Numbered from the stretch's first letter, positions 1,297 to 15,926 are shown. The stretch: 22,141 nucleotides of DNA from an uncultured virus (IMG/VR IMGVR_UViG_3300037067_010746) (IMGVR_UViG_3300037067_010746); one strand, 5' to 3'. Notes: generated from the sequence alone by a model not told the origin. Numbers and translations: made by a program.

Positions 1297-1312
1297 TTTT
1301 TTAACTTTTTAA

Positions 1313-2713
1313 TTATGATTCTAATATATTGATTGACAACTCTTGTTCACTATCGGCGATAACTCTATCCATAAAGATAATACCATTATATTGTTTTGCA
1401 ATATTAAGCAATTCTGGTAAACGAGTATTATCATAACTTTCAGCACTTCCTATAAGCCAAATTGGTAATGCTTGATTAAGATGAGCCATAAGTTTAATGA
1501 TAATCATACCACCTTCAGAATAACTAACTGAATCCTTTGTAAATGGAATATAATTATTCCCATCGACATAAAAGCATTCGCCATCTTCAATAGATATATT
1601 CTCTACTGGTAATTTATTCTCTTCAATGATTGCCTCTTTTCGTTCACGTTTCTTTTTAATATCAGCATCAAGAATTTGTAATTCGTCAAATTTAACTTGA
1701 GCAACTTTTTTATTTTCAGTATAAGATTTATCTTTAGCTTCGATATTTCTAACTGCTTCAATAAAAGCTTTACCTGATGTTATACGTTCACGAACTTTAA
1801 ATTCATTACCTAAGTCTTTACAGTTATTTACATCTTCTAATGCTTTGATATTTTTATCCTTTAAATCAGGCATAATATTTTCAAATCCTTTTAGCTCAGA
1901 TAACCGTTTTACTTTTTTTTCCTCAAGTGATTTTATTTGTTGAGTAATATCATCGATATCTTCTTTTGCTGAATCTATAAATAAATTATTTTGCAAAATT
2001 GCATCTTTAGTAGTTTTAAGATTTTCTGATAGTTTTGTTGGATTATTCGCAAGTATTTTTTCTAATTGTTGCTCATAAGTATAAAGTAAGTTTTTTGCAG
2101 TTTCAACTTTAGTGATTTTCTCTTTTTCTTCAGGAGTTAATTTAAATTGGTCAACAATACTTTTTGCTGCTTCATATTCTTTATTTATAATTGTACGAGA
2201 ACCATATAAAGTACCAAATTTTGGAGATACTTCATTTTCAATCTTCAAATATTCTTCTCGTGCAATATCAGGTAATAAGTTAAGAATAATTTCAGCTTGT
2301 TTTTTTCTACCTTCTGCTGTTAATCCCCAACCAAACCATTCATCAATAGTAAATGAATTATATTTGAAAATATCTGCAATTACATTATTCCTTGAAGTAC
2401 TTTTATGAACATTAGTATCTGGATCAATAATTACAAATTTATTTGTATCACTTGTAAAATCCCATTTAACGAGATAATTACCACCATTAGCACCATCAAA
2501 AGAAAATTGACCCTTAACTTGTCCATTTTCTTCTCCAAAAGATACATTATCTGTTTTCCTTGCAATGCCAGTAGCCAATGTTGAAAGACCTTGTAAAAAT
2601 GTTGTTTTACCTATATTGTTCGGACCACCGACAACATATACATTACCACTTTGAAACTCATGAGAGAAATCCTTGATTTTCTTAAAGTTTTTAAATTCTA
2701 AATTAAGATTCAT
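1313..2713 (-). CDS. Rad50/SbcC/SMC-like coiled-coil ATPase
   Basis: N-terminal LEFKNFKKIK, Walker A GPNNIGKT, long coiled coil, signature-like SYSEG and degenerate Walker B (WLIGSAESYD). Confidence 0.8.
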   Translation of the reverse strand: MNLNLEFKNFKKIKDFSHEFQSGNVYVVGGPNNIGKTTFLQGLSTLATGIARKTDNVSFGEENGQVKGQFSFDGANGGNYLVKWDFTSDTNKFVIIDPDTNVHKSTSRNNVIADIFKYNSFTIDEWFGWGLTAEGRKKQAEIILNLLPDIAREEYLKIENEVSPKFGTLYGSRTIINKEYEAAKSIVDQFKLTPEEKEKITKVETAKNLLYTYEQQLEKILANNPTKLSENLKTTKDAILQNNLFIDSAKEDIDDITQQIKSLEEKKVKRLSELKGFENIMPDLKDKNIKALEDVNNCKDLGNEFKVRERITSGKAFIEAVRNIEAKDKSYTENKKVAQVKFDELQILDADIKKKRERKEAIIEENKLPVENISIEDGECFYVDGNNYIPFTKDSVSYSEGGMIIIKLMAHLNQALPIWLIGSAESYDNTRLPELLNIAKQYNGIIFMDRVIADSEQELSINILES

Positions 2714-2714
2714 A

Positions 2715-2945
2715 TTAATTTAATTGATTAATAATTGATTTGATTTTTTCGTATTGTTCATTTATTATTACATGCTCTGATGAAAGAAATACTACACATA
2801 AACCTTTCTTTCTTGTTCTCATAATAGCTGTCTGTTTATTTATTGAAATAGATATAGGTAATGTTCTATTTCTTCCTGATAATACAGTAGTTTCGATGCG
2901 AGCTTCTGTTTCAGAATAATTTACTTCAATTGTTCCGTTTAACAT
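2715..2945 (-). CDS. Hypothetical protein (76 aa)
   Basis: Tightly packed ORF in the operon. Confidence 0.65.
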   Translation of the reverse strand: MLNGTIEVNYSETEARIETTVLSGRNRTLPISISINKQTAIMRTRKKGLCVVFLSSEHVIINEQYEKIKSIINQLN

Positions 2946-3826
2946 TAGTCTTCGTTTGAATTATTTTCATCTTCGCTATCATTATTAATCTCTTCATTAA
3001 ATATTTCATCTATTAATTTAATAACATAATCAGATGATAATTTAAAGTCAGGATTTTCCATCGATGCTCGAATAGCAGATATAAACATTAAGAAATAAGT
3101 AGTATCTACACCAATAAGTTGATCTTCTAATACTTTTACATCAAGTAAATCTAATTGATTTAATTGTACGGCCATTTTAAGATATTCTCCGGCATTTATA
3201 CTCCAGCCACGATTAATGAATTTGCGAGTTCTAATAATTGATGACAATGGATATTTACTACCAGTATAACGAAGTTCTCTTGCAAGTAAAGCTTCTGCAC
3301 TCGTTCCTGGAATAACAAGTTTATTATCCCAACTTGACCAATAAGATTTAGTATGTTCAAAATCATAATTAGCATGAATTTCTTCAGGTTCACCATAAAA
3401 ACGAATTACTAATTGGACTTTATCAGATAAAGTGATAGCATTACCAGTAATAAATATTGGTAAAAATGAATTTAGTTTATATGACTTATGAGATGCATTA
3501 AATTTAATAATACCAGCAGACGGTATAAAGATAGAAATTCTTCCATCAACTTCTTTTGTTAATAAAGAAGGAATACTCTTTTTTTGAACAATAGCACAAG
3601 CTTCAACTTGTTTAATATAGTAAGCACAGAGAGCGAGTACTGTTTCCTTATTTCTAAAATACATATCGTAATCATTTACTTCTTCTTGTAGTAACATCGA
3701 AGCAATTGCTCCACCGGTAATGATAGTATTCATTTTTACAAGATTTCTTACTGTTTCATCAGTAATACTGTTACACCATTTAGAATGAATGTATTTTAGC
3801 TGTTTTTCAATTGTTTTTCTTTTCAT
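2945..3826 (-). CDS. Phage nucleotidyltransferase-like protein (Pol-beta superfamily)
   Basis: ITGGAIASMLLQEEVNDYDMYF matches the GG...DxD motif; later YDF and RTRKFINRGW motifs recall CCA/poly(A)-polymerase-like phage proteins. Confidence 0.65.
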   Translation of the reverse strand: MKRKTIEKQLKYIHSKWCNSITDETVRNLVKMNTIITGGAIASMLLQEEVNDYDMYFRNKETVLALCAYYIKQVEACAIVQKKSIPSLLTKEVDGRISIFIPSAGIIKFNASHKSYKLNSFLPIFITGNAITLSDKVQLVIRFYGEPEEIHANYDFEHTKSYWSSWDNKLVIPGTSAEALLARELRYTGSKYPLSSIIRTRKFINRGWSINAGEYLKMAVQLNQLDLLDVKVLEDQLIGVDTTYFLMFISAIRASMENPDFKLSSDYVIKLIDEIFNEEINNDSEDENNSNED

Positions 3827-3841
3827 ATTTTTTATTTGTTT

Positions 3842-4144
3842 TTAATAAATATCAGATTCAGTTGCATCACAATAATCATGAAAGTTATTTCTTATATAAG
3901 AATTAGAAGACATTACTTCACCAGAATTAGGTTCAATAATATCATAATCTGCATCATTTAATTTTGAAAATAAAATTTCTTGTGATAAAACTTTACAATT
4001 ATTATTATCATTACCCAATACTCTAATTAATAAACTTAAAGTATTTCGTACATGATCTTCATCCATAGAACTCACAGTTTGAATTCTACCATCTTTTGTT
4101 TTCCAACATGAAATTGGTTTTTTAATTTTTTTACCGTAGCACAT
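3842..4144 (-). CDS. Hypothetical phage protein (100 aa)
   Basis: ORF coupled to the helicase stop; WKTKDG...MDEDHVRN motif. Confidence 0.65.
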   Translation of the reverse strand: MCYGKKIKKPISCWKTKDGRIQTVSSMDEDHVRNTLSLLIRVLGNDNNNCKVLSQEILFSKLNDADYDIIEPNSGEVMSSNSYIRNNFHDYCDATESDIY

Positions 4145-5574
4145 TAAATTTCTATAAATATATTATAATCTAAAGAATGAACAAATCGAATCAAAGCAGT
4201 ATCATCATCTGATGTATCTTCTCGATTTGCTCCAGTATCGACAATAAACAAATGTCGCATTGAGTCTTTGTATTCTCCATATTCATTCATAAGATCATCA
4301 TATTTCCCAGGATTATTTATTAATAATACTGAATTCGGAATACGTCTAAATGCTTCAGTTCCCTTCATATCCATTAATCGAGGACGGAAAGCACTTTTAA
4401 TACGATCTTCACTTTGTTGACTATCTTTATAATGATGAATAGGAATAATACATCCTTTGGTTTTCTGTCTAATATTTAACATTTGATTCATAACATAATC
4501 ATACATTGAATTTTCGGCACCTTTAAAATCTTCTCTATCGGACAAGGCAAGAACATTATCTACAATTAATACATTAAATCTTCCTGGACGTACTTTGCAA
4601 AAGTTTGCAAATTCATTAGCTATCTTCCAACTTCTTGCAGATTGTTCTTGAAATACAATATCAAAAGAATTAAATTTATCCATTATACCTCGAATAGAAT
4701 TTCTACTGGTATCACTAAATTGTCTTCGTTTGATATCTTTAGGTTTGACAAAAATCTTTGTAGCGAGATATCCTGCTGCAATATCCTTAGCACTATCTTC
4801 TAATGTAACCCAATAGATAGAAACATCATTATATTTCTCAAGGATAGCAAACATCATAGCCATTACAAATTTAGACTTACCATGTTTTGCTCCTCCGGCA
4901 AATAATAATATTTTATCTTTAGTTAATCCAACTTTATTATCAAACTTTTTATATCCAGTTTCCCATACAAACCTATCATTTTCTTCTTCACTCTCCATAT
5001 CATCAAGAAAACTATTAGTTACATCTTGTATAGATTTTGTAGAATCGGCTTTTTCGATACCCTCATTCATTTTAGTTAATTGAAGCATTGTATCATCAAT
5101 AGTCGTAAATATATCCTTAGAGCTATCGAAAGCATCTGTAATCTTTTCGCTACATAGTATAATAAGTCTTCTTTGTAATGATTTTTGTTTTAATATTCTA
5201 ATATGAGTTTGAATATGAGCATCAGTATAAACTTTAGTTCCCATCATTGATATTGCATATGGACCACCAGCTTCTTCAAGGCTACCCATTCGAATTAATT
5301 CTTCAACTACTGTAAGTAAATCAATATCATCACCTCGAGCATATAAATTCTTTATAGCAAGAAATGATAAATTACATGATGGAGAATAGAAATCTCCATC
5401 GTCAAGAAATGTAATAGCAAAACGAGTGTCTTTTGAGTTGGTAAGCATGATAGTACCAATAACGGCTTCTTCTAAATCTATAGATTGTGGAGGCGTTTTT
5501 CCTTCATTATTAGAAGAGAGTAGATGCCTGTTGGCTTTTATCGACTTGGACTTTTTGGGGTTGTTTGGTTCCAT
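4144..5574 (-). CDS. dnaB: DnaB-like replicative helicase
   Basis: DnaB N-domain (PPQSIDLEEAVIG, DFY, IDLLTV, AGGPYAI), Walker A GGAKHGKS, VTLED, Walker B LIVDN, RPRLMD. Confidence 0.88.
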   Translation of the reverse strand: MEPNNPKKSKSIKANRHLLSSNNEGKTPPQSIDLEEAVIGTIMLTNSKDTRFAITFLDDGDFYSPSCNLSFLAIKNLYARGDDIDLLTVVEELIRMGSLEEAGGPYAISMMGTKVYTDAHIQTHIRILKQKSLQRRLIILCSEKITDAFDSSKDIFTTIDDTMLQLTKMNEGIEKADSTKSIQDVTNSFLDDMESEEENDRFVWETGYKKFDNKVGLTKDKILLFAGGAKHGKSKFVMAMMFAILEKYNDVSIYWVTLEDSAKDIAAGYLATKIFVKPKDIKRRQFSDTSRNSIRGIMDKFNSFDIVFQEQSARSWKIANEFANFCKVRPGRFNVLIVDNVLALSDREDFKGAENSMYDYVMNQMLNIRQKTKGCIIPIHHYKDSQQSEDRIKSAFRPRLMDMKGTEAFRRIPNSVLLINNPGKYDDLMNEYGEYKDSMRHLFIVDTGANREDTSDDDTALIRFVHSLDYNIFIEI

Positions 5575-6019
5575 GCAAATTATTTTTAAATTGATTTATT
5601 GCTTCAACGATTTTATCTGGTCCACGAGTATTTAGTACATCTTGAAATTTCTCAGTAATACTACTAAATATTTCAAATGACATATTCCCGAGCATATAGA
5701 AATCACGAGGATTTTTCCCTAAACCAAAATTAGAATCATACATACCATCAGAGATAAATACAATTATACCTTTTTTCTTATCTGTTTTAGCTAAATATTT
5801 AGGATCTTTAGAGCCATGTTTTCTATCCCACCAATCACTATAAGCTTTGAACTTAGTATAAATGAAATCGAAATCCATTGGATCTCCTTGAAATGTTGTC
5901 ATACTGCTTTTTAAGTGTCTTTCAACATATGCAAACATTTGATTTTTATTTGCTTCCGGATCAAGCTTAAACAATAATTCAAATTGTTCAAGCGTCATTA
6001 CTGTTTTTTCTTCTTTCAT
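5510..6019 (-). CDS. Hypothetical protein overlapping the helicase start (possible replication/loader protein)
   Basis: 169-aa ORF directly upstream of DnaB; function inferred from position only. Confidence 0.55.
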   Translation of the reverse strand: MKEEKTVMTLEQFELLFKLDPEANKNQMFAYVERHLKSSMTTFQGDPMDFDFIYTKFKAYSDWWDRKHGSKDPKYLAKTDKKKGIIVFISDGMYDSNFGLGKNPRDFYMLGNMSFEIFSSITEKFQDVLNTRGPDKIVEAINQFKNNLHGTKQPQKVQVDKSQQASTLF

Positions 6020-6237
6020 TAATTATAAATAAAAGGATCTAACACAAAGTAATCGAGTAAGAGCCATCGTTTAAGCTCTAATATGTAGACTTGTATATTC
6101 CCTGATTTATCACGTGCTATACTATCATATTTAGCTGTATAAATAGTTTTTAAGTTTACATAAAGAGGAGCTGTTGGCAATGGTCTTACCCATAGTACTT
6201 CAGGTTTAATTTGTAATTTGTTATTAAGTTCGTTCAA
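6019..6237 (-). CDS. Hypothetical protein (72 aa)
   Basis: Coupled ORF with TTG start. Confidence 0.5.
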   Translation of the reverse strand: MNELNNKLQIKPEVLWVRPLPTAPLYVNLKTIYTAKYDSIARDKSGNIQVYILELKRWLLLDYFVLDPFIYN

Positions 6238-6287
6238 AATGTTAAGTTTTATTGTTTCTTCGAAAAGATATACAAATATACTATTAA

Positions 6288-6761
6288 CTATGAAATTTCG
6301 AGTTCTATAATTCCTGCAGCAGCTTTTAACCGAATGGAATCAATAGAATTAAGTTTAGAGAATATTCTAAACATCTCCAGATTACTATCAAAACTATACT
6401 TAGGAATAAAAATTGCATCTCCATTAGTATTTGTATTAAAGTACCCATAAAATATTCCATCTTTTAGTTTTTGTAAATATCCCCATCGATGATTCTTGGA
6501 GTTAAATATTTTAATGGTTTTCATTTGCTTATTTATACTTGGAGAAGCATAAACAGCTTTACCATTATCAATTACCATTTTACCTTTATCTTTTTTATGG
6601 ACAAGGTACCCGAGTAAGGAGCAGTACCGTACGATCTCATCATATTCTCTACTACTAAATCTTAATCGAGTTAATTCTTCTTTTACGATAGTCTCTTTTA
6701 ATAAAGAGAGTTTTTTGATATCCTCAGTTTTTAGGGAATCGAACAAATTGTTTTTTCTCAT
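6288..6761 (-). CDS. Hypothetical basic protein (157 aa)
   Basis: ORF track; same-strand packing. Confidence 0.65.
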   Translation of the reverse strand: MRKNNLFDSLKTEDIKKLSLLKETIVKEELTRLRFSSREYDEIVRYCSLLGYLVHKKDKGKMVIDNGKAVYASPSINKQMKTIKIFNSKNHRWGYLQKLKDGIFYGYFNTNTNGDAIFIPKYSFDSNLEMFRIFSKLNSIDSIRLKAAAGIIELEIS

Positions 6762-6765
6762 CGTT

Positions 6766-7071
6766 TTAATTATTATTGTTAGGATTATAAATTAGCCATT
6801 TAATAGGCAACATTAGTGATAGAACTACGTAAGTAATTCCAATAGTTATTATTATTTCAATACCTATACCATAGAATAGATAATGAATAATCATTGCGAG
6901 CCACACGCTATTACAGAAATGACAATATCCAAAAGAGTTTCGAATAGACCATTTCATTTTATGAAGGATTTTAAACCACCAATGTAATGGATGTCCAGGA
7001 AACATTAATTTTTGATATATTAATTCTAAACCAGCTATAGCAATTCCGAGTATTATGTAATTACTCAACAT
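6766..7071 (-). CDS. Membrane protein with CxxC (DUF1360-like)
   Basis: Likely start MLSNYIILG at 7071; hydrophobic helices and GYCHFCNSVW motif. Confidence 0.55.
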   Translation of the reverse strand: MLSNYIILGIAIAGLELIYQKLMFPGHPLHWWFKILHKMKWSIRNSFGYCHFCNSVWLAMIIHYLFYGIGIEIIITIGITYVVLSLMLPIKWLIYNPNNNN

Positions 7072-7291
7072 ACCTTTCTTTTTGAATTTGTTTAAACTTT
7101 TTTTTATTGTATGGATAAATTTTACACCACTTATCAATAATAACAGTATTACGCTTATATAAGAGTACACGTAAGTTTCTTGTATATATATTGATAATTC
7201 TGCTTACCGAAGCTAATGATAGCTCAGGAACGTCCTTACGTACCTTTTCGAGCACTCTTGATGCGTAGTCTTTAGGTTTTAATTTCTTCAT
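7061..7291 (-). CDS. Small basic protein, possibly HU/IHF-like
   Basis: Two helices (LSLASVSRIINIYTRNLRVLL) followed by a beta strand (VIIDKWCKI), as in HU; Lys/Arg-rich. Confidence 0.4.
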   Translation of the reverse strand: MKKLKPKDYASRVLEKVRKDVPELSLASVSRIINIYTRNLRVLLYKRNTVIIDKWCKIYPYNKKKFKQIQKERYVE

Positions 7292-7514
7292 TTTCTAAAA
7301 TTAATAAACCTTTATCACTTCTAATGATTTTACCTTTTCTTATAGCACCAATAATTCGTGTATTTTTTAATACACTTACAATTGAAATAATAGCTATTGG
7401 TGGTATCTCTTTTTGTATTTGATCAAACATAATATCGCAATCTACATGACTTGTAAATAAACCACATATTATATCTTCAACTAAAAGAACAAAGATTAAT
7501 GATGATTGTGTCAA
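7272..7514 (-). CDS. Hypothetical protein (80 aa)
   Basis: Overlaps the UDG stop. Confidence 0.55.
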   Translation of the reverse strand: MTQSSLIFVLLVEDIICGLFTSHVDCDIMFDQIQKEIPPIAIISIVSVLKNTRIIGAIRKGKIIRSDKGLLILENEEIKT

Positions 7515-8056
7515 AATAATGATTTTGCTTTAATAAAATCTTTTACAACCTTATCATATAATTCATAATTACTCGAACGTATTAAATTAGTTGGATGTAA
7601 TGTAGGCATAACATGAATACCATTAGGCAATATAATAAATTTACCTCTAAGTTTAGAAATGCTACGTTGCCGAGTTATGGCATATAAAGCTATAGAACCA
7701 AGAGTAATAATTACTGTAGGATTTAAAATAATTTGTTGTGTTTTTAAATTAAATCTACACATGTCAACATCATTATGAGTTATCCTTTTATTACTCCTAC
7801 ATTTAACTGCATGTGTAATATAAACATCATCACGATATATTCCGGAGTCAGTAAGTATACTATTAAGAACAAAACCAACATTCCCAATAAATGGCATACC
7901 ATAAGCATCTTCTTCTTTATTTGGTGCTTCACCAACAATCATGATTTTAGCATTAGGATTTCCTTCTCCGGGAACGAGGTTTAATCGAGAATCGTGTTGA
8001 ATACACTTTTGACACTTCTGAAGTTCTAAGTGTAATTGGTTGAGATTTAAGTTCAT
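7511..8056 (-). CDS. Uracil-DNA glycosylase, family 4 (4Fe-4S)
   Basis: CQKC, VPGEGNPNAKIMIVGEAP, ED..G.PFIG, VKCR, fourth Cys, TLG, MPTLHP. Confidence 0.9.
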   Translation of the reverse strand: MNLNLNQLHLELQKCQKCIQHDSRLNLVPGEGNPNAKIMIVGEAPNKEEDAYGMPFIGNVGFVLNSILTDSGIYRDDVYITHAVKCRSNKRITHNDVDMCRFNLKTQQIILNPTVIITLGSIALYAITRQRSISKLRGKFIILPNGIHVMPTLHPTNLIRSSNYELYDKVVKDFIKAKSLF

Positions 8057-8267
8057 CTATATTTATCAATTTACGTATTGCTTGATAATGTCCTTCAAGT
8101 GCTTTATATAAGCAATTAGAAAATGATATTTCATTTACTCTACTTTCACCACTATTACGGAGATCTTCAATTAAATTATGCATTATTATCATCATATCAG
8201 ATGTTTCTTGATCTAATCGAGAAAACTGATTTTCTATTTTCTTTAATCGTTTAAATATTTTAAACAT
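7953..8267 (-). CDS. Hypothetical protein (104 aa) overlapping the UDG 5' end
   Basis: ATG overlaps the upstream ORF end; 104-nt overlap with UDG. Confidence 0.5.
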   Translation of the reverse strand: MFKIFKRLKKIENQFSRLDQETSDMMIIMHNLIEDLRNSGESRVNEISFSNCLYKALEGHYQAIRKLINIDELKSQPITLRTSEVSKVYSTRFSIKPRSRRRKS

Positions 8268-8565
8268 CTTCCATATCTATTTCTTGTAATAACTTACAAA
8301 TTTGTATTAAGATAATAGTATCTGTTACTGAATAAATAGGTTCAGATAGTATCCCTTGAGATATAAGTTGTTCCAAAATACCTTCATTTTCAGAATAGTT
8401 TTTAATACAAACTTCATTTTTTTCTAAAATAATTTCCGGAACATTAACTGTTACCGTTGCGTAAGGCTCACCACCTTTTGTAATTAACATAAGAGCTATT
8501 CTATCATTATTTTGATATTTGCTTTTCCAAATGTCCATCACTTCACCATTGATTTTTACTTCCAT
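8260..8565 (-). CDS. DUF4313-like phage protein
   Basis: YQNNDRIALML...GEPYATVTVN...IKNYSENEG pattern. Confidence 0.6.
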   Translation of the reverse strand: MEVKINGEVMDIWKSKYQNNDRIALMLITKGGEPYATVTVNVPEIILEKNEVCIKNYSENEGILEQLISQGILSEPIYSVTDTIILIQICKLLQEIDMEDV

Positions 8566-8580
8566 GAGATTTATTATTAA

Positions 8581-8715
8581 TTAATATACATATACTTTGA
8601 TTAATATCCACCAATTAAATATCTTACGATATACTCTAATTGTATGTACCATAATACTGCCATGACCTACTATGACAGTTTTTCTTTTTGTTTTAAATTT
8701 AATTTCTTTATTCAT
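8581..8715 (-). CDS. Small basic ORF (44 aa), not in the ORF track
   Basis: Hand translation MNKEIKFKTKRKTVIVGHGSIMVHTIRVYRKIFNWWILIKVYVY; start overlaps the end of the upstream gene. Confidence 0.4.
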   Translation of the reverse strand: MNKEIKFKTKRKTVIVGHGSIMVHTIRVYRKIFNWWILIKVYVY

Positions 8716-8923
8716 TATCTATTACAAATTTTACATTTAATATTTTTTGTACTGTTCTGCATTTTTTAACTCCATTGTAAGAAAGTCCATTTTGTTGTGC
8801 GTATTGAGGAATAGTTTGTATGTTTAAATATGCTCCTACAAGTTCAATTAATTGAACTAATTCTGTGTTTGAAACTTTACCTTCGTAAATATTTTTTTCA
8901 ACTTCTTGTATTAAATTACTCAT
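8708..8923 (-). CDS. Small putative HTH (excisionase/MerR-like) DNA-binding protein
   Basis: ATG at 8923; C-terminal TIPQYAQQNGLSYNGVKK...ILNVKFV resembles a winged HTH. Confidence 0.45.
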   Translation of the reverse strand: MSNLIQEVEKNIYEGKVSNTELVQLIELVGAYLNIQTIPQYAQQNGLSYNGVKKCRTVQKILNVKFVIDNE

Positions 8924-8973
8924 AATCAACTTATTTTTTTGGTTAAATTTATTGAATTACGTTTAGTAGGATG

Positions 8974-9378
8974 TTAGCACCCATTCGAAAGACGCAGCAG
9001 CACATCGGCATGGCACGGCTTATTTAATGAGCAAAAACATGATAGATTTTTACCTTTAAGAATTGAATAATCGGGCGGAGTTGGTAAACAACTTTGTTTT
9101 AATTCACCTTTTATCCATTGTTCGTAAAGGTCAACAATATCAGATAAATCAAAACCGCCAGCAGCACTCCAATAAATCCAACGGTCTAATATGTTTCGAT
9201 TTGTCGAATAACACATTATCCAACCATCAGGAGTTAATTTAAACGGATTACCAAACTTTGTCGGTCTTCCAACATAAACAGTATTTTCAGGAGTTTTATA
9301 TCCTTTAGCCCTCGAACGCTGAAAACGAACGGGTGCTAACAATATGTTTATGCAATTGGGTTTTTGTGGTGTATTCAT
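8974..9378 (-). CDS. DUF4326 family protein (cassette 1)
   Basis: VYVGRPTKFGNPF...LKGKNLSCFC...PCHADVLLRLSN motifs. Confidence 0.85.
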   Translation of the reverse strand: MNTPQKPNCINILLAPVRFQRSRAKGYKTPENTVYVGRPTKFGNPFKLTPDGWIMCYSTNRNILDRWIYWSAAGGFDLSDIVDLYEQWIKGELKQSCLPTPPDYSILKGKNLSCFCSLNKPCHADVLLRLSNGC

Positions 9379-9462
9379 CTGTATTACAATTTATTAAGTT
9401 AGTACTATTTTTATAGCGCAGTGGCTTATAATCCCCAACTGCACAAACATTTAACGTTGTAA
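9334..9462 (+). repeat. attC-like site A
   Basis: tgctAAC-aat-ATGTTTaTGCAaTTGGG...CCCAAcTGCAcAAACAT-ttaac-GTTgtaa; about 129 nt. Confidence 0.8.
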
Positions 9463-9468
9463 ACAATG

Positions 9469-9669
9469 CTACAACTTTGCTAATAATTCATCTAATTTAG
9501 AATTTAACGAATCCAACCTATCATAATTTGAGTAGGTTAATAAAGTTTCGTCAACATCTGTTAATTGCTCTTTAGTTAATGTCTTGCTTATTTCAATCAA
9601 TTCTTCTTCTTCAAAAATTGTAGCAGTTAAGTTTCTGCGTTTCTCTAATAATTCGTTAAATTTTTCCAT
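9469..9669 (-). CDS. Hypothetical acidic protein (cassette 2)
   Basis: 66-aa ORF filling the space between sites A and B. Confidence 0.7.
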   Translation of the reverse strand: MEKFNELLEKRRNLTATIFEEEELIEISKTLTKEQLTDVDETLLTYSNYDRLDSLNSKLDELLAKL

Positions 9670-9705
9670 CTTATAATTAAGTTATTCGTTAATAATCTGC
9701 ACAGT

Positions 9706-9758
9706 TTACAACAATAAATAAAAAACATTAAAACGATTTTTTATTCAAACCGTTATAG
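9706..9758 (+). repeat. attC-like site B (short)
   Basis: ttacAAC-aat-aAATAAAAAA...TTTTTTATTc-aaacc-GTTatag; about 53 nt. Confidence 0.7.
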
Positions 9759-9780
9759 CCAATTAAAAAGACGGCTACGA

Positions 9781-10083
9781 TTAAGCAAGTTTCGACTTAT
9801 CAAATCCTGCGATTTTAATTTCCACCTTTTCTCGTTGCATTTTACCATCTTGATAATACTCTGTCCAAATGTCGCCACTTTCTTCACCTTCACCTGATAG
9901 TTTAAATACAACTTTTGGGTGTCTTTTTGAGTATTCCACCATATTTTCTTTATGGTCGTACCATTTAATTTCGCCATCAAAGCAGTTGTTATAATCAGCT
10001 AACTCGCTAATCTCTTTTTCGTAATCAGTAACATAGTCGTTACCTTCTACAATCTCTAATTCGTGTCTTGTGTAGTATCCCAT
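9781..10083 (-). CDS. Hypothetical phage protein, 100 aa (cassette 3)
   Basis: Likely start MGYYTRHELEIV at 10083; KWYDH and LSGEGEESGDIW motifs common in phage proteins. Confidence 0.75.
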   Translation of the reverse strand: MGYYTRHELEIVEGNDYVTDYEKEISELADYNNCFDGEIKWYDHKENMVEYSKRHPKVVFKLSGEGEESGDIWTEYYQDGKMQREKVEIKIAGFDKSKLA

Positions 10084-10087
10084 TTCT

Positions 10088-10410
10088 TTAAAAATTAACT
10101 GGCTATAACACACAATAAAAAATATNNNNNNNNNNTTTTTGGCCAATTAAACATCCCAGCTACGTTCCCATTCTTGGATTATGTTTCTGTAATATTCTAC
10201 CGACTTTAACTTTTTGTAAGGATTGTTTTTTCGTAATCCATTTGGAAACTCACAACATAATCCATCGTGTCCAGTCATTCCATCTCCATCATGGCAACCG
10301 CATTTACATTCCATTACAACTGCCCATTTATATTTTTTATATGTCTTACAAAAAGTGCATTTACACATCTGATTAAAAATTAACTGGCTATAACACACAA
10401 TAAAAAATAT
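10088..10410 (+). repeat. 38-nt exact direct repeat (10088-10125 and 10373-10410), the left arms of attC-like sites C and D; site C is broken by an N gap
   Basis: TTAAAAATTAACTGGCTATAACACACAATAAAAAATAT occurs twice; Ns at 10126-10135. Confidence 0.9.
10147..10368 (-). CDS. Cys/His-rich small protein, 73 aa (cassette 4)
   Basis: Likely start MCKCTFCK at 10368; CKCGCH...HDGLCC suggests metal binding. Confidence 0.65.
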   Translation of the reverse strand: MCKCTFCKTYKKYKWAVVMECKCGCHDGDGMTGHDGLCCEFPNGLRKNNPYKKLKSVEYYRNIIQEWERSWDV

Positions 10411-10517
10411 ATGGGTGTTTGTGCCTATTTGTGCAGTTGTACCTTTAATTTGCTTCAATGTATGAGGACAGGTTACTGCTTTGAAATCCCATACATTTCT
10501 TATTGCCACCGTTAGTA
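10388..10517 (+). repeat. attC-like site D
   Basis: ctatAAC-aca-CAATAAaAAATaTATGGG...CCCATAcATTTcTTATTG-ccacc-GTTagta; about 130 nt. Confidence 0.8.
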
Positions 10518-10523
10518 GCCATT

Positions 10524-11147
10524 TTAAGAACCCCACTGCAACGCCATTGCTTCGGCAATTCCGGTAAAGGTTTTGGAACGGGCTTTCCTTCGTTCTTCTT
10601 TTGGTAATTTAAAAGATTCATAGTGCAATCGGCTGTCTGTTCGTCCACTTTTATGCACTATAATATCAGGTTCAACAATATTTGTAGGTTGTAGTTTTTG
10701 CAATCCTGCAATCCATAAACAAGTGCTTTTGCGTTCAGTATGCCCAAATTGGTAGGGTTGTATTATTTGGGCTGGCTTTTTATAAAGTCGGCTCATTATT
10801 CCAATTGGGTTTTCAATATAACCTTTACCAATTTTCTCCAATGCTTCGGCACACTTCAAAAAGTGTTCAATTGCTTCGGCTCTTTGTTCGTGTATGTTTG
10901 GGAAGCGTTCAGCGTATTCAGGCTTGTAATACTTATTAGCTGCAACTGTTAGTCTTGTACATTCTGGGTGCATACCTAAAAAGTCAGGCTTAATAAATTC
11001 TATTGCCTCAAAGCAATCCATTTGTAAGTGTCTTTCGGGGTGTTTTCCGCTTGCTGGTAATAAATCACAACTATAAGCATCGTGTCCAGCATTTAAAAAC
11101 GCTTGCATTACTGTTTGGCTTTCTTCGTGTGTTATCAATACTATCAT
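10524..11147 (-). CDS. Short phage-type DNA cytosine methyltransferase-like protein (cassette 5)
   Basis: VLITHEESQ...AF...GHDAYSCDL, HPECT (PC-like motif IV), IENP (motif VI), IIQPYQFGH, KSTCLW, RSKTFTGIAEAMALQW. Confidence 0.75.
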   Translation of the reverse strand: MIVLITHEESQTVMQAFLNAGHDAYSCDLLPASGKHPERHLQMDCFEAIEFIKPDFLGMHPECTRLTVAANKYYKPEYAERFPNIHEQRAEAIEHFLKCAEALEKIGKGYIENPIGIMSRLYKKPAQIIQPYQFGHTERKSTCLWIAGLQKLQPTNIVEPDIIVHKSGRTDSRLHYESFKLPKEERRKARSKTFTGIAEAMALQWGS

Positions 11148-11221
11148 AAAATTTGATTAAAAAATGAATAAAAACGGCACATAATACTACCTATACGTCA
11201 GTTTGCAAAAAGCAAACCGAT

Positions 11222-11497
11222 TTATTGCGGTTTCCATTCTTTATTACATTTAGTGCATATAAATTTTATGGGCGAACATTCATCTTCATCACAAGTGCAA
11301 ACCGATTTGCTAATATCAGCTAAATCTAATTTGCTTTGTTCTATGCTCGCTTGTAAAGCTTTGTTTTCTTCGTTCATTGCATATAGCAAGTTGTCTATAT
11401 TATTTACTTGCATCATTGCATACAATTCGTCTTTGGTATCTATTGCGTGTAATAGTTTACCTCTTATTTCTGATAATTCAATTATGTGTTTTTCCAT
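11222..11497 (-). CDS. Hypothetical protein with C-terminal Cys-rich (zinc-ribbon-like) tail (cassette 6)
   Basis: 91 aa; coiled-coil N-terminal part, then CTC...C...CTKC. Confidence 0.65.
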   Translation of the reverse strand: MEKHIIELSEIRGKLLHAIDTKDELYAMMQVNNIDNLLYAMNEENKALQASIEQSKLDLADISKSVCTCDEDECSPIKFICTKCNKEWKPQ

Positions 11498-11624
11498 ATT
11501 TTACACGTATTAAGTTATTTTTAAATTATTCGCAAACTATTGTTAGCTGTATAGCGTTATAGCCAATTACGTACAGCGTTGCTCGTACCTATTTAGCTTT
11601 TCATTATTCTAAAATTAATATGAT

Positions 11625-11679
11625 AAAAAAAAACTCAAGCAAAGCTTTCCAATAACACCATATTATTACTTTGCTTGAG
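11625..11679 (-). terminator. Putative terminator or processing hairpin
   Basis: 11-bp stem CTCAAGCAAAG/CTTTGCTTGAG with a 24-nt loop, followed by T9 on the minus strand. Confidence 0.5.
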
Positions 11680-11696
11680 AAGTACGGATATACTTG

Positions 11697-11789
11697 AAGA
11701 GATGATCGGATTCGAACCGATAGCGTTAAATGAATGGGATACATTTAATGTTCTAACCAATTGGTTTTCGACCTACGAACTACACCTCC
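11697..11789 (-). tRNA. Atypical tRNA-like gene (possibly Gly-CCC-derived, or a pseudo-tRNA)
   Basis: Acceptor GGAGGTG/CATCTCT, D stem GTTC/GAAC, T arm ATCGG-TTCGAAT-CCGAT; enlarged D loop and anticodon arm. Confidence 0.7.
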
Positions 11790-11791
11790 AT

Positions 11792-11830
11792 AAAAAAAGC
11801 CTTCTCGTATCTCTACATAAGAAGGCTTTT
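11792..11830 (-). terminator. Putative intrinsic terminator
   Basis: AAAAGCCTTCT/AGAAGGCTTTT stem with a T run on the minus strand, just after the 11838 stop. Confidence 0.65.
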
Positions 11831-11837
11831 ATATTTA

Positions 11838-12227
11838 TTAAACATTTGGCTGGACATCTGTTCCATCAAGTTTAAGATAAGATAGATCTTGATTATTTAA
11901 GTCCTTAAGGTTTATATTTAATATTTTATAAAATTCAGCGTTTCCGCTTAAGGACTTTCCGAGAATCACCACCTCAACTTCCAATATCTCATTAATAAAT
12001 AAAACAGAAATTTGAATAGTTGAAATATAGTTTATCAACTGACTCTGGACTATATTATCAATATTTAAACTTGCAATAGGTATATCTATATCAACATTAC
12101 TGCCGATATCTACTCCTATTACGTACCCTTGACTAACATCTACATTTAATGTAGTGTTCGATGCCATTAATAAACTCGTAAATAATAACGAGATAATAAC
12201 AGCTAATAAACCACGTAATGAATTCAT
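11838..12227 (-). CDS. Hypothetical exported/membrane protein
   Basis: Likely ATG at 12227; MNSLRGLLAVIISLLFTSLLMA is signal-peptide-like. Confidence 0.5.
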   Translation of the reverse strand: MNSLRGLLAVIISLLFTSLLMASNTTLNVDVSQGYVIGVDIGSNVDIDIPIASLNIDNIVQSQLINYISTIQISVLFINEILEVEVVILGKSLSGNAEFYKILNINLKDLNNQDLSYLKLDGTDVQPNV

Positions 12228-12401
12228 AAAATTAAGTATTAGTAAATAATTATTAAGAAATAAAAGTAATACATTTTTATCCAAAATGCAAAATTGAGTT
12301 ATTTTCGTTTTCTATATTTAAAATATAGTTCTAATAATAATACCCAAATAAATGATGTAATAGTTAAGAGTATTAACCATGCCAAAAAGAATTCTATTAA
12401 T

Positions 12402-12629
12402 CTAATCATTTGATTTAAGTGTTAGTATATGATTTGTATATTCTTTGATGGTAAGTTTACGAAGATGTAATCGATATCGATTTCTTGTATGACTTTCGAC
12501 AAAACATATCATAAACCATATTTTATTTTTCTTATTCTTTAAGGTCAACCAAATAATATCTCCAGATCGTGGAGTATTCATTTTCTTATAAATTTCATCT
12601 GATATTATATATTTCATTATAAATGACAA
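12402..12629 (-). CDS. Hypothetical protein
   Basis: ORF track; same-strand packing. Confidence 0.5.
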   Translation of the reverse strand: MSFIMKYIISDEIYKKMNTPRSGDIIWLTLKNKKNKIWFMICFVESHTRNRYRLHLRKLTIKEYTNHILTLKSND

Positions 12630-12871
12630 TTAGGATTAATAACTGGAAATTCTTTTTGAATATGATATGAACCATATGGAGATGTTGTAAGATGTATTTC
12701 TCTGTTTTTATGATGACAATAATCGTAATGAATAGAAATTGTTTTCATATCACTTGGTTTATCAATATCAATAAAATTTGTTTGTTTCTCAATTTCATCA
12801 ATAAGTTGTTTTGCTAATGAAAGAATCCTATCGTTAGGATTAACTTTTTTGTTTCTTATTCTAATATTCAT
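12617..12871 (-). CDS. Hypothetical protein (84 aa)
   Basis: ORF with AT-rich leader. Confidence 0.6.
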   Translation of the reverse strand: MNIRIRNKKVNPNDRILSLAKQLIDEIEKQTNFIDIDKPSDMKTISIHYDYCHHKNREIHLTTSPYGSYHIQKEFPVINPNCHL

Positions 12872-12891
12872 ATAAATTAATTTAATTATTA

Positions 12892-13314
12892 TTAAAACTC
12901 TAAATCTTTAATATAATCTTCTTCAATTGAGTCTTCAGGAAACAAGTATTCAAGTGTAAAACATTTATGCTTACGTTTAACGGTCTGTGTTCTTTCCATG
13001 CCAAATATATGATATACATGAGTGATAGCCTCTGTATCGTTCTTAGTATAACTACATTCATGATTATTATGTTCATAGTCATATACATCTTGAGGTTCAC
13101 AATTATCAGCTATCTCTTTGGTGTTAACTTCATAAAACTCATAAACTTTTTCAATACCTTCTTTAGTACCATATAAACCATTACCTACATTAATAATAGT
13201 TTTGTTTTGTAATTGCATTCTTTCTATTCCTTCATTATATTGTTGATGAGAGAAGGCAAAAAAGCAATCGACTAATACCGGTTGCTTTTCATTTATTTCT
13301 GCATAAGTTGCCAT
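12892..13314 (-). CDS. Conserved-looking hypothetical phage protein (140 aa)
   Basis: FFAFSHQQYNEG and YEHNNHECSYT motifs. Confidence 0.7.
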   Translation of the reverse strand: MATYAEINEKQPVLVDCFFAFSHQQYNEGIERMQLQNKTIINVGNGLYGTKEGIEKVYEFYEVNTKEIADNCEPQDVYDYEHNNHECSYTKNDTEAITHVYHIFGMERTQTVKRKHKCFTLEYLFPEDSIEEDYIKDLEF

Positions 13315-13316
13315 AA

Positions 13317-13556
13317 TTAAGGTAATATTAAATAAATTTGACTTATGAGATCTTCAAGTTCTTTAGTTCCAATTTCAACAGTACCATTATATTCCCCACT
13401 ACCAACAATATCATCAACTTCTATTGCAACATATTGTTCAAATGTGAGTTTCTTTTGTGCTTGAAGAAATTGAGCATCATCAGAAGAAAATTCTGATTTA
13501 CTAACAGTAACCCCACATATAGGGTCTGTAGATATGAAATATTTTATTATTCTCAT
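13317..13556 (-). CDS. Hypothetical protein (79 aa)
   Basis: Coupled ORF. Confidence 0.6.
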   Translation of the reverse strand: MRIIKYFISTDPICGVTVSKSEFSSDDAQFLQAQKKLTFEQYVAIEVDDIVGSGEYNGTVEIGTKELEDLISQIYLILP

Positions 13557-13768
13557 TCTAATATATTTTTTAATGTTTGAAATTCTTTAATTGTATCAGT
13601 AATATTCCTATCAAAATTATACAAGTGGATTTTAGTTTGTCCATGGAATTCATCTTGAAGAAATGTTTTAGTTTCTTCAGTTAAACTATCATATTGTAAT
13701 TCTAATTTTTCAACTTGATTTAAAAGTGATTTTAACTTAGGTAAATCTTTTCTATTTGGATTATTCAT
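13553..13768 (-). CDS. Hypothetical protein (71 aa)
   Basis: Coupled ORF. Confidence 0.6.
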   Translation of the reverse strand: MNNPNRKDLPKLKSLLNQVEKLELQYDSLTEETKTFLQDEFHGQTKIHLYNFDRNITDTIKEFQTLKNILE

Positions 13769-14049
13769 TAGATTACAGCTTTAATAGTGTTTCTTATTCG
13801 TTGATAAAGAACATCATTTGCATAGACTTCCTTATTTGTTATCATATCATCACCTATAGCTAATAATAGTTCAAACATATCAGGTGCAGCAGCTATAAGC
13901 TTAGCATTAGCTCTGTGTTCATTGATAGAACAATCTCGTAGCATAACTTTAGCAATAAGAGGCGTACCAATAGCTCCTATTGAAATTTCTCGATCAGGTT
14001 GAGTCCATTCATTGATAGACCATTTACCTTTTGTATGATTTGTTTCCAT
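13768..14049 (-). CDS. Phage hypothetical protein (HTxGxW...ANAxLIAAAP type)
   Basis: Likely start METNHTKGKW; ANAKLIAAAPDMFELL motif. Confidence 0.75.
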   Translation of the reverse strand: METNHTKGKWSINEWTQPDREISIGAIGTPLIAKVMLRDCSINEHRANAKLIAAAPDMFELLLAIGDDMITNKEVYANDVLYQRIRNTIKAVI

Positions 14050-14180
14050 AATTGTATTTATTAAATGATTGTGTATTGAATAGGAAAGTAACAAGTAATC
14101 ACATTCGTCTACGGGCAGATTAAATCTTTTCGCATATGTACCTCATACTTGTTACTATATTTTATATTAAATTATTTTCA

Positions 14181-14384
14181 TTACCTATAAATATTATGTA
14201 CTTGAATTAATAACAAATCTCCATTCCATGATGTTTGATATTCCTTAATAGTAGATTTATTATATATTGTTGGATTTGTTATAATATCAAATATCCTTGT
14301 CATTTCAATTTCGGTACCAGAGTATATTACTCCATCATTATCTATAATTTTCCACATATTATTAAAATTTATATTATTTCCCAA
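14181..14384 (-). CDS. Hypothetical protein
   Basis: ORF track. Confidence 0.55.
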   Translation of the reverse strand: MGNNINFNNMWKIIDNDGVIYSGTEIEMTRIFDIITNPTIYNKSTIKEYQTSWNGDLLLIQVHNIYR

Positions 14385-14584
14385 CTATTGTATTTTGGTA
14401 TTAAAGGGATATAATCATCTGAAGCTTTTTTATTACAAACTTTACATATCATTCCAGGAATAACTATATTATGATAATTTTCATCATCATAACCAATATC
14501 GATTGTAACATCGCCACAATGTTCACATACTAATTCTAAATTTAGATCTCGACGTGATTGATATAATATCTTTTTAATTTTCAT
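14369..14584 (-). CDS. Zinc-ribbon protein
   Basis: CEHC...CKVC. Confidence 0.7.
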   Translation of the reverse strand: MKIKKILYQSRRDLNLELVCEHCGDVTIDIGYDDENYHNIVIPGMICKVCNKKASDDYIPLIPKYNSWEII

Positions 14585-14764
14585 AACTGATTCTTATTTA
14601 TACATAAATAACACATAATCGGTAATTACACAATATAACTCTTACAATTCCGCATGAACATATTCCCACCTATATCCTTATTTAACATTAAAATCTTATA
14701 ACACTAATATAGCTATAACCATATAGACCCATAAAAAGGAATAAGTCAGCGAAACTGCATGCGA

Positions 14765-15010
14765 TTATTGAGCAATACTCATAGTAAATACATCTATGTT
14801 AAGACTTGATAATACTTGGTTTAAGACTGGTTTAGCATTGCGAGCACATAGGTTACAAGTGCAAGGTTCTTTGGTAAACTTACCACAACCTGAGTTGAAA
14901 ATATATCCATTCTTTATTATTTGTTGAAACTTGCCTGTTCTTATCAAGCGTTGAAGAGTTAAAGGGCTTATAACCCTTTGAATACTGGTGATTACAGTTG
15001 GTTGATTCAT
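14765..15010 (-). CDS. Hypothetical Cys-rich protein
   Basis: CG...CTCNLC. Confidence 0.6.
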   Translation of the reverse strand: MNQPTVITSIQRVISPLTLQRLIRTGKFQQIIKNGYIFNSGCGKFTKEPCTCNLCARNAKPVLNQVLSSLNIDVFTMSIAQ

Positions 15011-15162
15011 ATCCGTACAGTTTAATTTAATGGTTAATTGATGATTTATGGTGTATAAAAAAGGTGTATATTTATAGTTAAGTGATTGATAATCATTCGG
15101 CGAGTATATGCCTCATCTAAAGTATTACTTTAAGTAGATAAGTTATACCTATATATAAGGTA

Positions 15163-15444
15163 TCATTTATACCATTTAGATAATTCTAATCCTTTACCTA
15201 TTTTAAACTTGCCAACACTATCTTTTATATATATATAATTATTAGTATTAAGTTGTTTAATTGTATAGATGCAATAAGGACTATTCCATTCCAATTGAGA
15301 AATCGCATAGACACCAAACTCATTAACAGTAACAACAGTATCTTTACTACTATCATTATTATTACAAGATGATGTTACGAATAAGATTACTCCTATACAT
15401 ATAAGAGTTAATGCTAAGACTTTAAGATGTTTCATTATATTCAT
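15163..15444 (-). CDS. Putative lipoprotein
   Basis: MKHLKVLALTLICIGVILFVTSSC: basic N-region, hydrophobic core, lipobox-like SSC. Confidence 0.6.
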   Translation of the reverse strand: MNIMKHLKVLALTLICIGVILFVTSSCNNNDSSKDTVVTVNEFGVYAISQLEWNSPYCIYTIKQLNTNNYIYIKDSVGKFKIGKGLELSKWYK

Positions 15445-15481
15445 TGTTTGTTTGTGACTTTGTGCGTGCCAAGTTGTTGTT

Positions 15482-15506
15482 AAAAAAAAGGGGGATATTA
15501 CTCCCC
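15482..15506 (-). terminator. Intrinsic terminator
   Basis: GGGGA-tattac-TCCCC stem with T8 on the minus strand, just after the 15513 stop. Confidence 0.7.
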
Positions 15507-15512
15507 GATTCT

Positions 15513-15926
15513 CTATTCAACTTTTAATCCAGCTGCTGTTCTTGCAACTTGATTGTTTGACCATACTGCTTCTTCACCTTCAATTGCAACTAATCCTTCT
15601 GGAGTATGTAACAATGCAAGATGTCCAATCTCTTGAACTAATGCTTTACGGATAGCTGATTCAGTCTTTTGACCTTTCATCTTCGCTACAACTAATGGTT
15701 GATATTTTGCAATCAATACAGCATTAACACCTGCTGCTTCATCAGCCATAACGATACGTACTTTACCTTCATCACATTTTCCTGTGAAATAATCTTTTAA
15801 TGGTTTACCATCATCTGAAATTCCACGATCAGCTTTAACTTGAACGTCTTCTAATGTTTGCATGTTGAACGGTTTGAAACCAGAGTTGTCATTTACTCTT
15901 GGTGCTGGACAAATAATTGTTTTCAT
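15513..15926 (-). CDS. Hypothetical protein (137 aa), first gene of the leftward arm
   Basis: Clean ORF with AT-rich leader and its own terminator. Confidence 0.75.
   Translation of the reverse strand: MKTIICPAPRVNDNSGFKPFNMQTLEDVQVKADRGISDDGKPLKDYFTGKCDEGKVRIVMADEAAGVNAVLIAKYQPLVVAKMKGQKTESAIRKALVQEIGHLALLHTPEGLVAIEGEEAVWSNNQVARTAAGLKVE

Follow-up and report, generated by a model that had tools for sequence, protein, structure and literature searches.

Here we describe an array of small genes and hairpin-forming spacers in the DNA of an uncultured virus (IMG/VR IMGVR_UViG_3300037067_010746); the whole stretch analysed, 22,141 nucleotides (nt) long, is referred to below as the window. The array extends over window positions 8973–11570, comprises about six cassettes and contains no integrase gene. 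We consider it probable that it is a recombinase-less, integron-like cassette array in the early arm of a phage, whose units are moved by site-specific recombination that re-pairs protein ends encoded by the sites themselves. PHROG and Pfam matches in the window include marks of a tailed phage, namely a DnaB-like helicase, an SbcC-like ATPase, UDG, a Tad2-like protein and a tail-fibre-like protein. Every open reading frame (ORF) from position 3 to 15926, including all of those in 8974–11497, lies on the minus strand, in agreement with an earlier reading of the DNA made without database searches (the sequence-only reading), which had placed all cassette genes there; a second arm, from 16220 onward, is encoded on the plus strand. 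Comparison of the backbone (window 1–8000) with 50,697 phage records gave no match, no relatives of three backbone proteins were found in IMG/VR, and in window 8000–12500 known phages match only one gene, an ORF of 207 amino acids (aa) at 10524–11147. The phage is new and of Flavobacteriia type, with the array located in its early (minus-strand) arm.

Followed along the minus strand, the array is bounded upstream by a tRNA-Leu gene (11696–11789) and the terminator-like hairpin and T-run that follow it (11679–11625; the whole feature spans 11625–11789). In an Rfam scan this tRNA alone passed, and no known RNA family covering the elements was found. The upstream end of the array (11532–11570) carries two AAC-type boxes, GGCTATAAC at 11564–11556 and CAGCTAAC at 11549–11542, together with the left arm of a second site proposed by the sequence-only reading. 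A 91-aa ORF follows, consisting of a conserved 63-aa N-terminal module (11309–11497) and a 28-aa Cys-rich tail that has no start codon of its own (11222–11308), and is succeeded by a decayed element (11148–11221) with a small hairpin, GGTTTGC-TTTTT-GCAAACT, and the degenerate core GGTAGTA..GCCGTTTTT. The next cassette gene (10524–11147; phrog_757) encodes the 207-aa protein, which is annotated as ‘DNA methyltransferase’ in relatives and gave no Pfam or NCBIfam match; its DNA is 83–84.5% identical to that of 37 Flavobacterium phage records and more weakly similar to Cellulophaga phages, the homology ending with the gene. Behind it lie E1 (10384–10521), a ~122-nt element with AAC at 10513–10511, GTT at 10394–10392 and a loop lacking ATG, and the cassette of a 74-aa Cys-rich ORF (10147–10371), whose stop codon is part of the outer box. 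The scaffold is supported by an independent contig of 1683 nt from a metagenome (L097; loci and contigs used for comparison are given as L numbers), which matches window 11586–10181 at 98%; at its position 1406 this contig diverges from the window at 10181, within the 3′ end of the 74-aa ORF and not at a box, so that the C-terminus of the ORF differs there.

Element E2 (10095–10150) is broken by a run of N (10126–10135), and in right arm and core it does not differ from E1, the two forming a 40-nt repeat (10086–10125 equals 10371–10410). At the E2 left arm, window 10126–10139 consists of the ten N followed by TTTT, and a contig of metagenome run X1 continues from 10140 straight into 29 nt identical to the E3 left arm. 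The sequence hidden by the N-run is probably an E3-like arm, and the printed ‘CCAAAAA’ box an assembly artefact; a candidate deletion joint, 9755|10140, was dropped because its 29-nt side is that same arm and may be true sequence under the N-run, and further joints whose sides measure 20–25 nt were set aside. The remaining units are the cassette of a 100-aa ORF (9781–10083; phrog_6306), the short-type element E3 (9702–9762), the cassette of a 66-aa ORF (9469–9669), site A (9330–9466), which is a hairpin element of the ~122-nt class, and a 134-aa DUF4326 gene (8974–9378). The array closes with the outer box that terminates the DUF4326 cassette on its 3′ side (8973–8987); this box reads ..CGAATGGGTGCTAAC on the gene strand and GTTAGCACC.. 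on the plus strand; no hairpin follows it, so that the array ends here beside backbone genes, and no fold was found in the 44-nt intergenic region 8973–8930.

All spacers share one design. On the gene strand the order is stop codon, ..YTAACG, left arm, loop, right arm, NTGTTAR.. and next gene, and the spacers are imperfect palindromes of the form ..TAACG-arm-loop-arm-TGTTA.., mostly of ~122 nt. The same design recurs between the early genes of Flavobacterium phage lillamy9-1 and Polaribacter phage P12002L, and around relatives of the 207-aa gene in IMG/VR contigs. Using our own duplex-energy screen for hairpins that end in AAC..GTT, we collected 80–81 distinct elements from related phage DNA, whose spans show a sharp peak at 120–129 nt (41 elements) and smaller classes near 47, 62 and 88 nt. 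A cruder scan for TAAC/GTTA hairpins with a simple match score returned 72 candidates in the window against 72–153 in shuffles, and was given up for scoring by duplex energy and by covariance model.

When 45 elements of the ~122-nt class were aligned, compensatory changes on both sides appeared in 15 of 20 consensus pairs; 91.2% of cells were paired, compared to 60.5% in column shuffles (0 of 500 reached the observed value) and 36–52% when the partner was slid. As in the attC sites of integrons, structure is therefore kept while sequence varies, in an imperfect inverted repeat with AAC ... GTT ends, and matches of the model in other loci keep these letters. The covariance model built from the 45 elements, R1, gave 35 matches in loci that mostly lay outside model building, all 35 of them on the gene strand, and on the complete lillamy9-1 genome it gave 15 matches, all within the early arm (2248–8963) and none elsewhere. 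Its matches in the window, all on the minus strand, were E1 (95.3 bits) and site A (89.7 bits), which are themselves seeds, and the non-seed E3 (21.9 bits, E 0.009). The consensus is asymmetric, with a 5-versus-1 internal loop beside the R box and conserved G.U pairs. Folding was better on the gene strand for 59 of 80 elements with RNA parameters and for 72 of 80 with DNA parameters.

Within a short-type subfamily, an 11-nt loop, TCGTTTTAATG, is kept over wholly different stems (15 instances, including E3, where it occupies 9736–9726). Elements with this loop were seen in L001, L004, L006, L014, L019, L046 and L071 as well as in the window; two of them have the GTTA/TAAC stem order flipped with the loop strand kept, which suggests strand-specific recognition of the loop. 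Part of E3 (36 nt, 9719–9754) is 97% identical to an unannotated intergenic spacer of P12002L. Arrays are also seen in a Flavobacterium metagenome-assembled genome (MAG; G001, contigs C167, C176 and C58, corresponding to L157–L159), with at least 60 R1 matches, 7–13 elements per contig on a single strand, and up to 13 matches on one 10.6-kb contig. In the published annotation of lillamy9-1 (L083), the tiny hypothetical ORFs gp006, gp008 and gp011 fall inside hairpins (2309–2425, 3052–3159 and 4459–4554).

The bases just outside the boxes pair across the gene. The eight bases outside GTT and the eight outside the next AAC, on the other side of the gene, were complementary at a mean of 5.7 of 8 positions, with at least six in 40 of 56 cases, while the same comparison within one element gave a mean of 3.3 and at least six in only 6 of 81. 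The outer core bases thus go with the next cassette, as at attC sites, so that cassette ends are mutually complementary. Because the ends pair in this manner, inverted repeats surround individual genes of the window: 8972–8987/9326–9341 around DUF4326 (16 nt, 15 of 16 or 94% complementary), 10109–10095/9766–9752 around the 100-aa ORF (15 nt, 14 of 15) and, around the 66-aa ORF, boxes co-varying as GTTG/CAAC, in which GTTGTAAACTGTGC at 9712–9699 pairs with GCATTGTTTACAAC at 9469–9456. Allowing up to three mismatches, the DUF4326 repeat pattern occurred twice against an expectation of 0.09, a count that 1 of 100 shuffles reached.

Homology between phages breaks at the same places. Copies of the 207-aa unit that are 99.5–99.9% identical, from Flavobacterium phages and a second lineage, reach 130–150 nt upstream to TAAC and end downstream at the next TAAC, 1–35 nt past the stop codon. 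The DUF4326 units of L084 and L085 are homologous in DNA to the window from GTTAGCACCC to GGGTGCTAA, with no homology beyond either side. The 207-aa gene and the E3 spacer (9719–9754) each travel alone, as a cassette system predicts. The hairpin spacers are cassette boundaries and form a family of folded recombination sites.

We then asked which gene each site moves with. The terminal AAC...GTT boxes are symmetric and cannot set the orientation, and extrahelical bases were not applicable as an orientation mark, the consensus being without them. Linkage, one deletion joint and the position of an Xer-like recombinase nevertheless all point to each site moving together with the gene that follows it on the gene strand, inverted in comparison with classical integrons. 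Near-identical pairs keeping only one neighbour always kept the upstream arms together with the gene (10:0 counted by gene clusters, 9:0 by arm clusters). Run X1 yielded a contig of 328 nt that agrees fully with window 9456–9756 and then continues for 27 nt as 8946–8972; its joint, 8972|9456, skips 483 nt that are exactly site A plus DUF4326, with GTT common to both sides. In this run the joint contig has a depth of 17.8, compared to 7.9 for the unitig of DUF4326 and 21.1 for the contig of the backbone, and the joint represents a population variant without one complete unit.

In the L084 contig the last cassette is immediately followed by the gene of a 277-aa Xer-like tyrosine recombinase (L172 1453–2286), which scores 169.5 bits against the integron-integrase model, whose cut-off is 265. 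Elements were present in five of the six phage loci of its relatives that have upstream DNA, and all 20 R1 matches there were upstream of, and co-oriented with, the recombinase, with none downstream. Read from the other strand, this is the layout of a classical integron, a recombinase pointing away from cassettes that each end in a site, except that the genes are inverted. By all three lines of evidence the ORF does not read toward its own site, which upholds the proposal of the sequence-only reading that cassette genes are antisense to their sites, although the boxes themselves are symmetric. Beside six tyrosine-recombinase loci of two MAGs, no R1 match below E 0.2 was found, three of these contigs ending just after the gene. 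Other comparisons also revealed exchange at the inner box, so that both boxes are used; in the available text of Bouvier et al. (2009, PMC2727003), the inner box is where the other strand would recombine.

Read depth points to many further copies of the arms. Word depth in bins covering elements was 150–466, compared to 7–40 for genes, and contigs break at the boxes; in run X1, for example, depths were 299 and 466 over elements and 8–30 over genes. Across four metagenome runs, the summed contig depth over elements (window 9319–9552 and 10372–10488) was 10–60 times that of the genes between them, implying that near-identical arms occur in many other contexts of the same samples.

The DUF4326 gene illustrates how a site can enter a protein. 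Its product matches Pfam PF14216 over residues 23–128 (E 2e-18, 67.2 bits against a gathering cut-off of 25). In site A, AAC lies at 9458–9456, a loop of ~70 nt at about 9431–9363, the right arm at 9362–9341 and GTT at 9340–9338; the arm duplex is more stable on the gene strand (−28.5 kcal/mol, as against −20.5 for the opposite strand), and its pairing was the best among 4413 windows tested against the left arm. The ATG of the gene (9378–9376) is inside this loop, 38 nt before the core G, and translation from it begins MNTPQKPNCINILLAP, crosses the right arm and core in frame (..PNCINILLAP..), taking its first 12–16 codons from loop, arm and core, and ends at a TAA (8976–8974) within the GTTAGC of the outer box (8973–8978). 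Coordinates, translation and hairpin energy thus bear out the sequence-only reading, which had the gene start at 9378 in the loop of site A and stop in the core at 8973.

Homologues in L008 and L086 start after the core (MERIQRKR.. and MKRIQIKR..), at the position of window residue 17; because they begin there, the first 16 residues of the window protein, which fall outside the Pfam family, are an add-on. In L084 and L085, DUF4326 stands behind two other hairpins, each with an in-frame, stop-free loop ATG giving the leaders MAETSNTHKNGNCANRV and MQKTKQTTETAVTYEPM, so that three different hairpins in total provide an in-frame loop ATG for this gene. In L004 a gene for an N6/N4-type methyltransferase stands behind a hairpin homologous to site A (72% over 101 nt), and its frame, too, opens in the loop. 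Members of the 207-aa family have their own Met in the window, L003 and L007; those in L016/L019 and in L022 have no canonical Met, and two different loops supply the ATG. The annotated start of the lillamy9-1 methyltransferase gp009 is likewise an ATG in a hairpin loop (L083 4153).

ATGs and A-rich leaders are found in loops across the element set. In 32 of 76 cases the next ORF had its first in-frame ATG inside the element, mostly 38 to 78 nt before the G, and in the other 44 this ATG lay about 3 to 82 nt past the core; in 19 of the 76, no other in-frame ATG was found within 90 nt past the core. In the ~122-nt class, 46 loop-ATG frames (46 elements) are open to the core and 25 run on into a long ORF. 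In 69 of 80 elements, TTA is immediately preceded by an NTG triplet. Within the window, the earlier suggestion that sites double as coding sequence applies to DUF4326 (start, N-terminus and stop), to the 91-aa ORF and to the stop of the 74-aa ORF. It does not apply where the 74-, 100- and 207-aa ORFs start, ~22 to 45 nt past the core (the 74-aa ORF ~22 nt past that of E1).

Around the 91-aa ORF, the sequence-only reading had proposed a second site with arms at 11318–11335 and 11532–11549, the start codon lying in its loop. The arms are as it described, with 14 of 18 bases complementary and a duplex of −18.7 kcal/mol on the gene strand against −14.6 on the other, but the pairing is borderline: 0.18% of 4413 windows pair equally well with the left arm, p is about 0.1 in the 300-nt neighbourhood, and the R1 scan of the window did not find the site. 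A junction does lie close by. Residues 1–63 are common to four relatives, with 71–99% identity over the aligned part, and the tails wholly diverge right after LAD(I/V)S at a core-like (A/G)TTAGC box (11314–11309), which is ATTAGC in the window and of GTTAGC type (a Val codon) in three of the four relatives. As all four diverge there, the junction is placed at 11314–11309, a few bases past the arm described earlier. The window, P0001 and P0002 have Cys-rich tails; those of P0003 and P0004 belong to a different type. Two copies of a 12-nt direct repeat, AAATCGGTTTGC, flank the window's 28-aa Cys-rich tail (11308–11297 and 11223–11212, spaced by 85 nt). A similar Cys-rich tail, beginning SVC.., follows a typical element with an ATG in its loop in L008; TCGGTTTGC stands there between the core and the tail. 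No relatives of the 91-aa ORF were found in IMG/VR; the only metagenome locus that carries it, L097, agrees with the window at 98%, and P0002–P0004 were compared as proteins.

For this ORF alone, it is conceivable, though on balance unlikely, that we are looking at an ordinary small gene in which cassettes inserted at an internal GTT, acting as a secondary site, with truncation giving rise to the new tails. The weak arm pairing and the missing R1 match would fit such a history, as would a ‘loop’ of ~196 nt, which is above the usual size, and a faint W..GY motif common to the tails of P0003 and P0004 that could be the original C-terminus. It accounts less readily for the two AAC-type boxes just upstream of the ORF (11564–11542), for a gene strand that is again better paired than the other, and for the L008 tail behind a typical element with a loop ATG.

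Taken together, our observations are consistent with the following scheme. A small Xer-like tyrosine recombinase, of the kind found at the downstream end of the array in some related phages, would cut the folded single strand at AA|C. As a rule, a site would move together with the gene downstream of it, in effect as a classical cassette with its gene inverted, and each cassette would consequently arrive with an A-rich region for translation initiation and, in many cases, with a start codon in its hairpin loop. Sites and genes would be re-paired when exchange took place at the inner box or when the other strand was used, so that the same gene may gain different loop- or arm-encoded N-termini and a loop-encoded module may gain different tails; genes without a start codon of their own would be expressed only as such fusions. 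That loops supply starts and N-termini from which chimeric proteins could be built, as the sequence-only reading had put forward, finds apparent natural examples in DUF4326, the L004 methyltransferase, the 91-aa ORF and the 207-aa family. What that reading observed is confirmed, and comparative evidence from related sequences supports its interpretation. More tentatively, and as a possibility rather than an expectation, the recombination site may be part of the gene in these phages, its loop carrying the start and the first 12–60 codons, in which case core exchange would act like exon shuffling. If so, leaders and N-terminal modules would be interchangeable on start-less cassettes, including tiny Cys-rich tails that could be expressed as fusions alone, and a virulent phage would possess a built-in generator of new accessory proteins.

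Several points weigh against a recombination array with site-encoded gene starts. The invariance of the letters AAC and GTTA, and part of the high pairing, in the element set arise by construction from the screen. The single-base extrahelical bulges that mark strand choice in attC were not found in the consensus of 45 elements; according to the available text of Bouvier et al. (2009, PMC2727003), attC strand choice depends on two or three single extrahelical bases on the R″-L″ arm. The linkage counts rest on two gene clusters with non-independent pairs. A single contig, 27 nt long on one side of the break, provides the deletion joint, and the run it comes from may have been the sample of the window itself. 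No recombinase was found in the 22-kb window, none is annotated in lillamy9-1, none was found in nine of ten array-bearing phage records searched, and three element-bearing MAGs yielded no integron integrase over the 265-bit cut-off. Regarding starts, an in-frame TTG, GTG or ATG stands exactly at the junction in all three DUF4326 contexts (TTG at 9342–9340 in site A), and translation could begin there instead of in the loop; moreover, by chance one third of the loop-ATG frames of the ~122-nt class would run on into a long ORF, so that some assignments of first ATGs to the element are coincidental. Finally, the elements are transcribed, and an RNA role fits this equally.

An explanation by RNA alone would hold that the hairpins are elements of a polycistronic early transcript, serving processing, stability, translation control or a loop-displayed start, with mosaicism produced by homologous recombination at the spacers. 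Every element is co-oriented with transcription, folding is better on the gene strand for most of them, a G.U pair beside AAC/GTT is kept in 39 of the 45 aligned sequences, the loops bear A-rich leaders and ATGs, and most element-bearing phages are without a recombinase, all of which such an explanation would accommodate. It leaves unexplained why the outer bases find their partners on the far side of the gene and not in their own element, why relatives cease to be homologous exactly at G|TTA or TAA|C, why the deletion joint falls precisely within GTT, and why relatives of the tyrosine recombinase are constantly associated with arrays. We therefore regard it as improbable as the sole explanation, but an RNA role could hold in addition to recombination. 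That chance repeats or an assembly artefact, with the scaffold stitched through repeats and ORF overlaps arising by accident, underlie the array is very improbable: the N-run at 10126–10135, the breaking of Logan contigs at every element and the excess of crude ‘hairpins’ in shuffles over the window would suit it, but the independent 98% match of L097 to window 11586–10181, the covariation controls and model matches in unrelated loci, and the recurrence of in-frame loop ATGs in three DUF4326 contexts all speak against it.

For a recombining cassette array of this kind, the implications extend to how such genomes are read. The usual view of integrons is of bacterial devices whose genes lack promoters and point toward a non-coding recombination site; the virulent-type phage described here differs in that the gene reads away from the site it moves with, the site apparently supplies start codon and N-terminus, and in relatives the same domain is found with other ends encoded by the sites. 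Cassette boundaries and gene starts in Bacteroidota phages would accordingly be called differently, published annotations already placing both spurious small ORFs and real gene starts inside hairpins. The array points to a testable recombinase, and with it the idea that phages diversify proteins through site-specific recombination can be put to a concrete test. Its cargo, together with that of relatives (methyltransferase-like genes, DUF4326 and Tad2-like genes), looks like counter-defence. The window encodes a protein with a Tad2-like (Thoeris anti-defence 2) domain at 17980–18294 on the plus strand (Pfam E 9.8e-21), and L004 carries, judged by reading the sequence, an 88-aa ORF of the Tad2-like kind as a cassette (4626–4892).

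Parts of this arrangement resemble known cases. In variants of aac(6′)-Ib, and with ORF-11 in attI1, a cassette gene lacking a start uses a start codon outside the cassette boundary, so that the upstream context decides its N-terminus. In integrons such cases are exceptions, operating via attI or the 5′ conserved segment, whereas here a start within the loop of an attC-like hairpin is common (32 of 76 elements). In T4-type phages, repeated stem-loops called PeSLs flank small accessory ORFs in plastic early regions and have been proposed to shuffle genes; they are modules of promoter and stem-loop, thought to act by homology, and we know of no PeSLs with AAC/GTT boxes, cassette-end complementarity or a dedicated recombinase.

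The nearest relatives are integrons and their integrase-less attC clusters (CALINs), which the available text of Qi et al. (2023, PMC9892861) reports in virulent phages, including two sites in Polaribacter phage P12002L, one of them recombined by IntI1 (section 3.4); we infer that the latter is the CTAAC..GTTAGGC hairpin in L001. The likeness lies in imperfect AAC...GTT palindromes of 45–140 nt with structure kept and sequence variable, in one gene per unit, in co-oriented arrays and in complementary cassette ends, and E3 matches a P12002L site. A complete integron, with an IntI bearing the extra domain, attI and Pc, was not found in the window, the lillamy9-1 annotation, the three MAGs or, judged by its score, the array-linked recombinase. 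Unlike in integrons, there is no IntI here, and the recombinase, where present, is a 277-aa Xer-like protein; unlike attC, the elements have no single-base extrahelical bulges; and in contrast to integron cassettes, the site moves with a gene reading away from it, start codons and N-termini lie within the site, and both boxes act as junctions. The rAID-1 clusters of gut Bacteroidales are Xer-associated arrays with integron-like repeats (Ross et al., bioRxiv 10.1101/471110); by their description in the available text they stand apart, being chromosomal, carrying immunity genes and having, in the authors' definition, the recombinase at the 5′ end. Our literature searches found no description of in-site start codons or inverted genes in these phages, and the elements themselves were found only in Qi et al. 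2023; the available text of Nilsson et al. (2020, PMC7077304) contains no mention of palindromes, hairpins, stem-loops, inverted, variable region or integrase. As far as these searches reach, the system is partly published, as a variant of integron-like arrays, and what would be new is that its sites appear to supply starts and termini, their exchange making natural chimeras.

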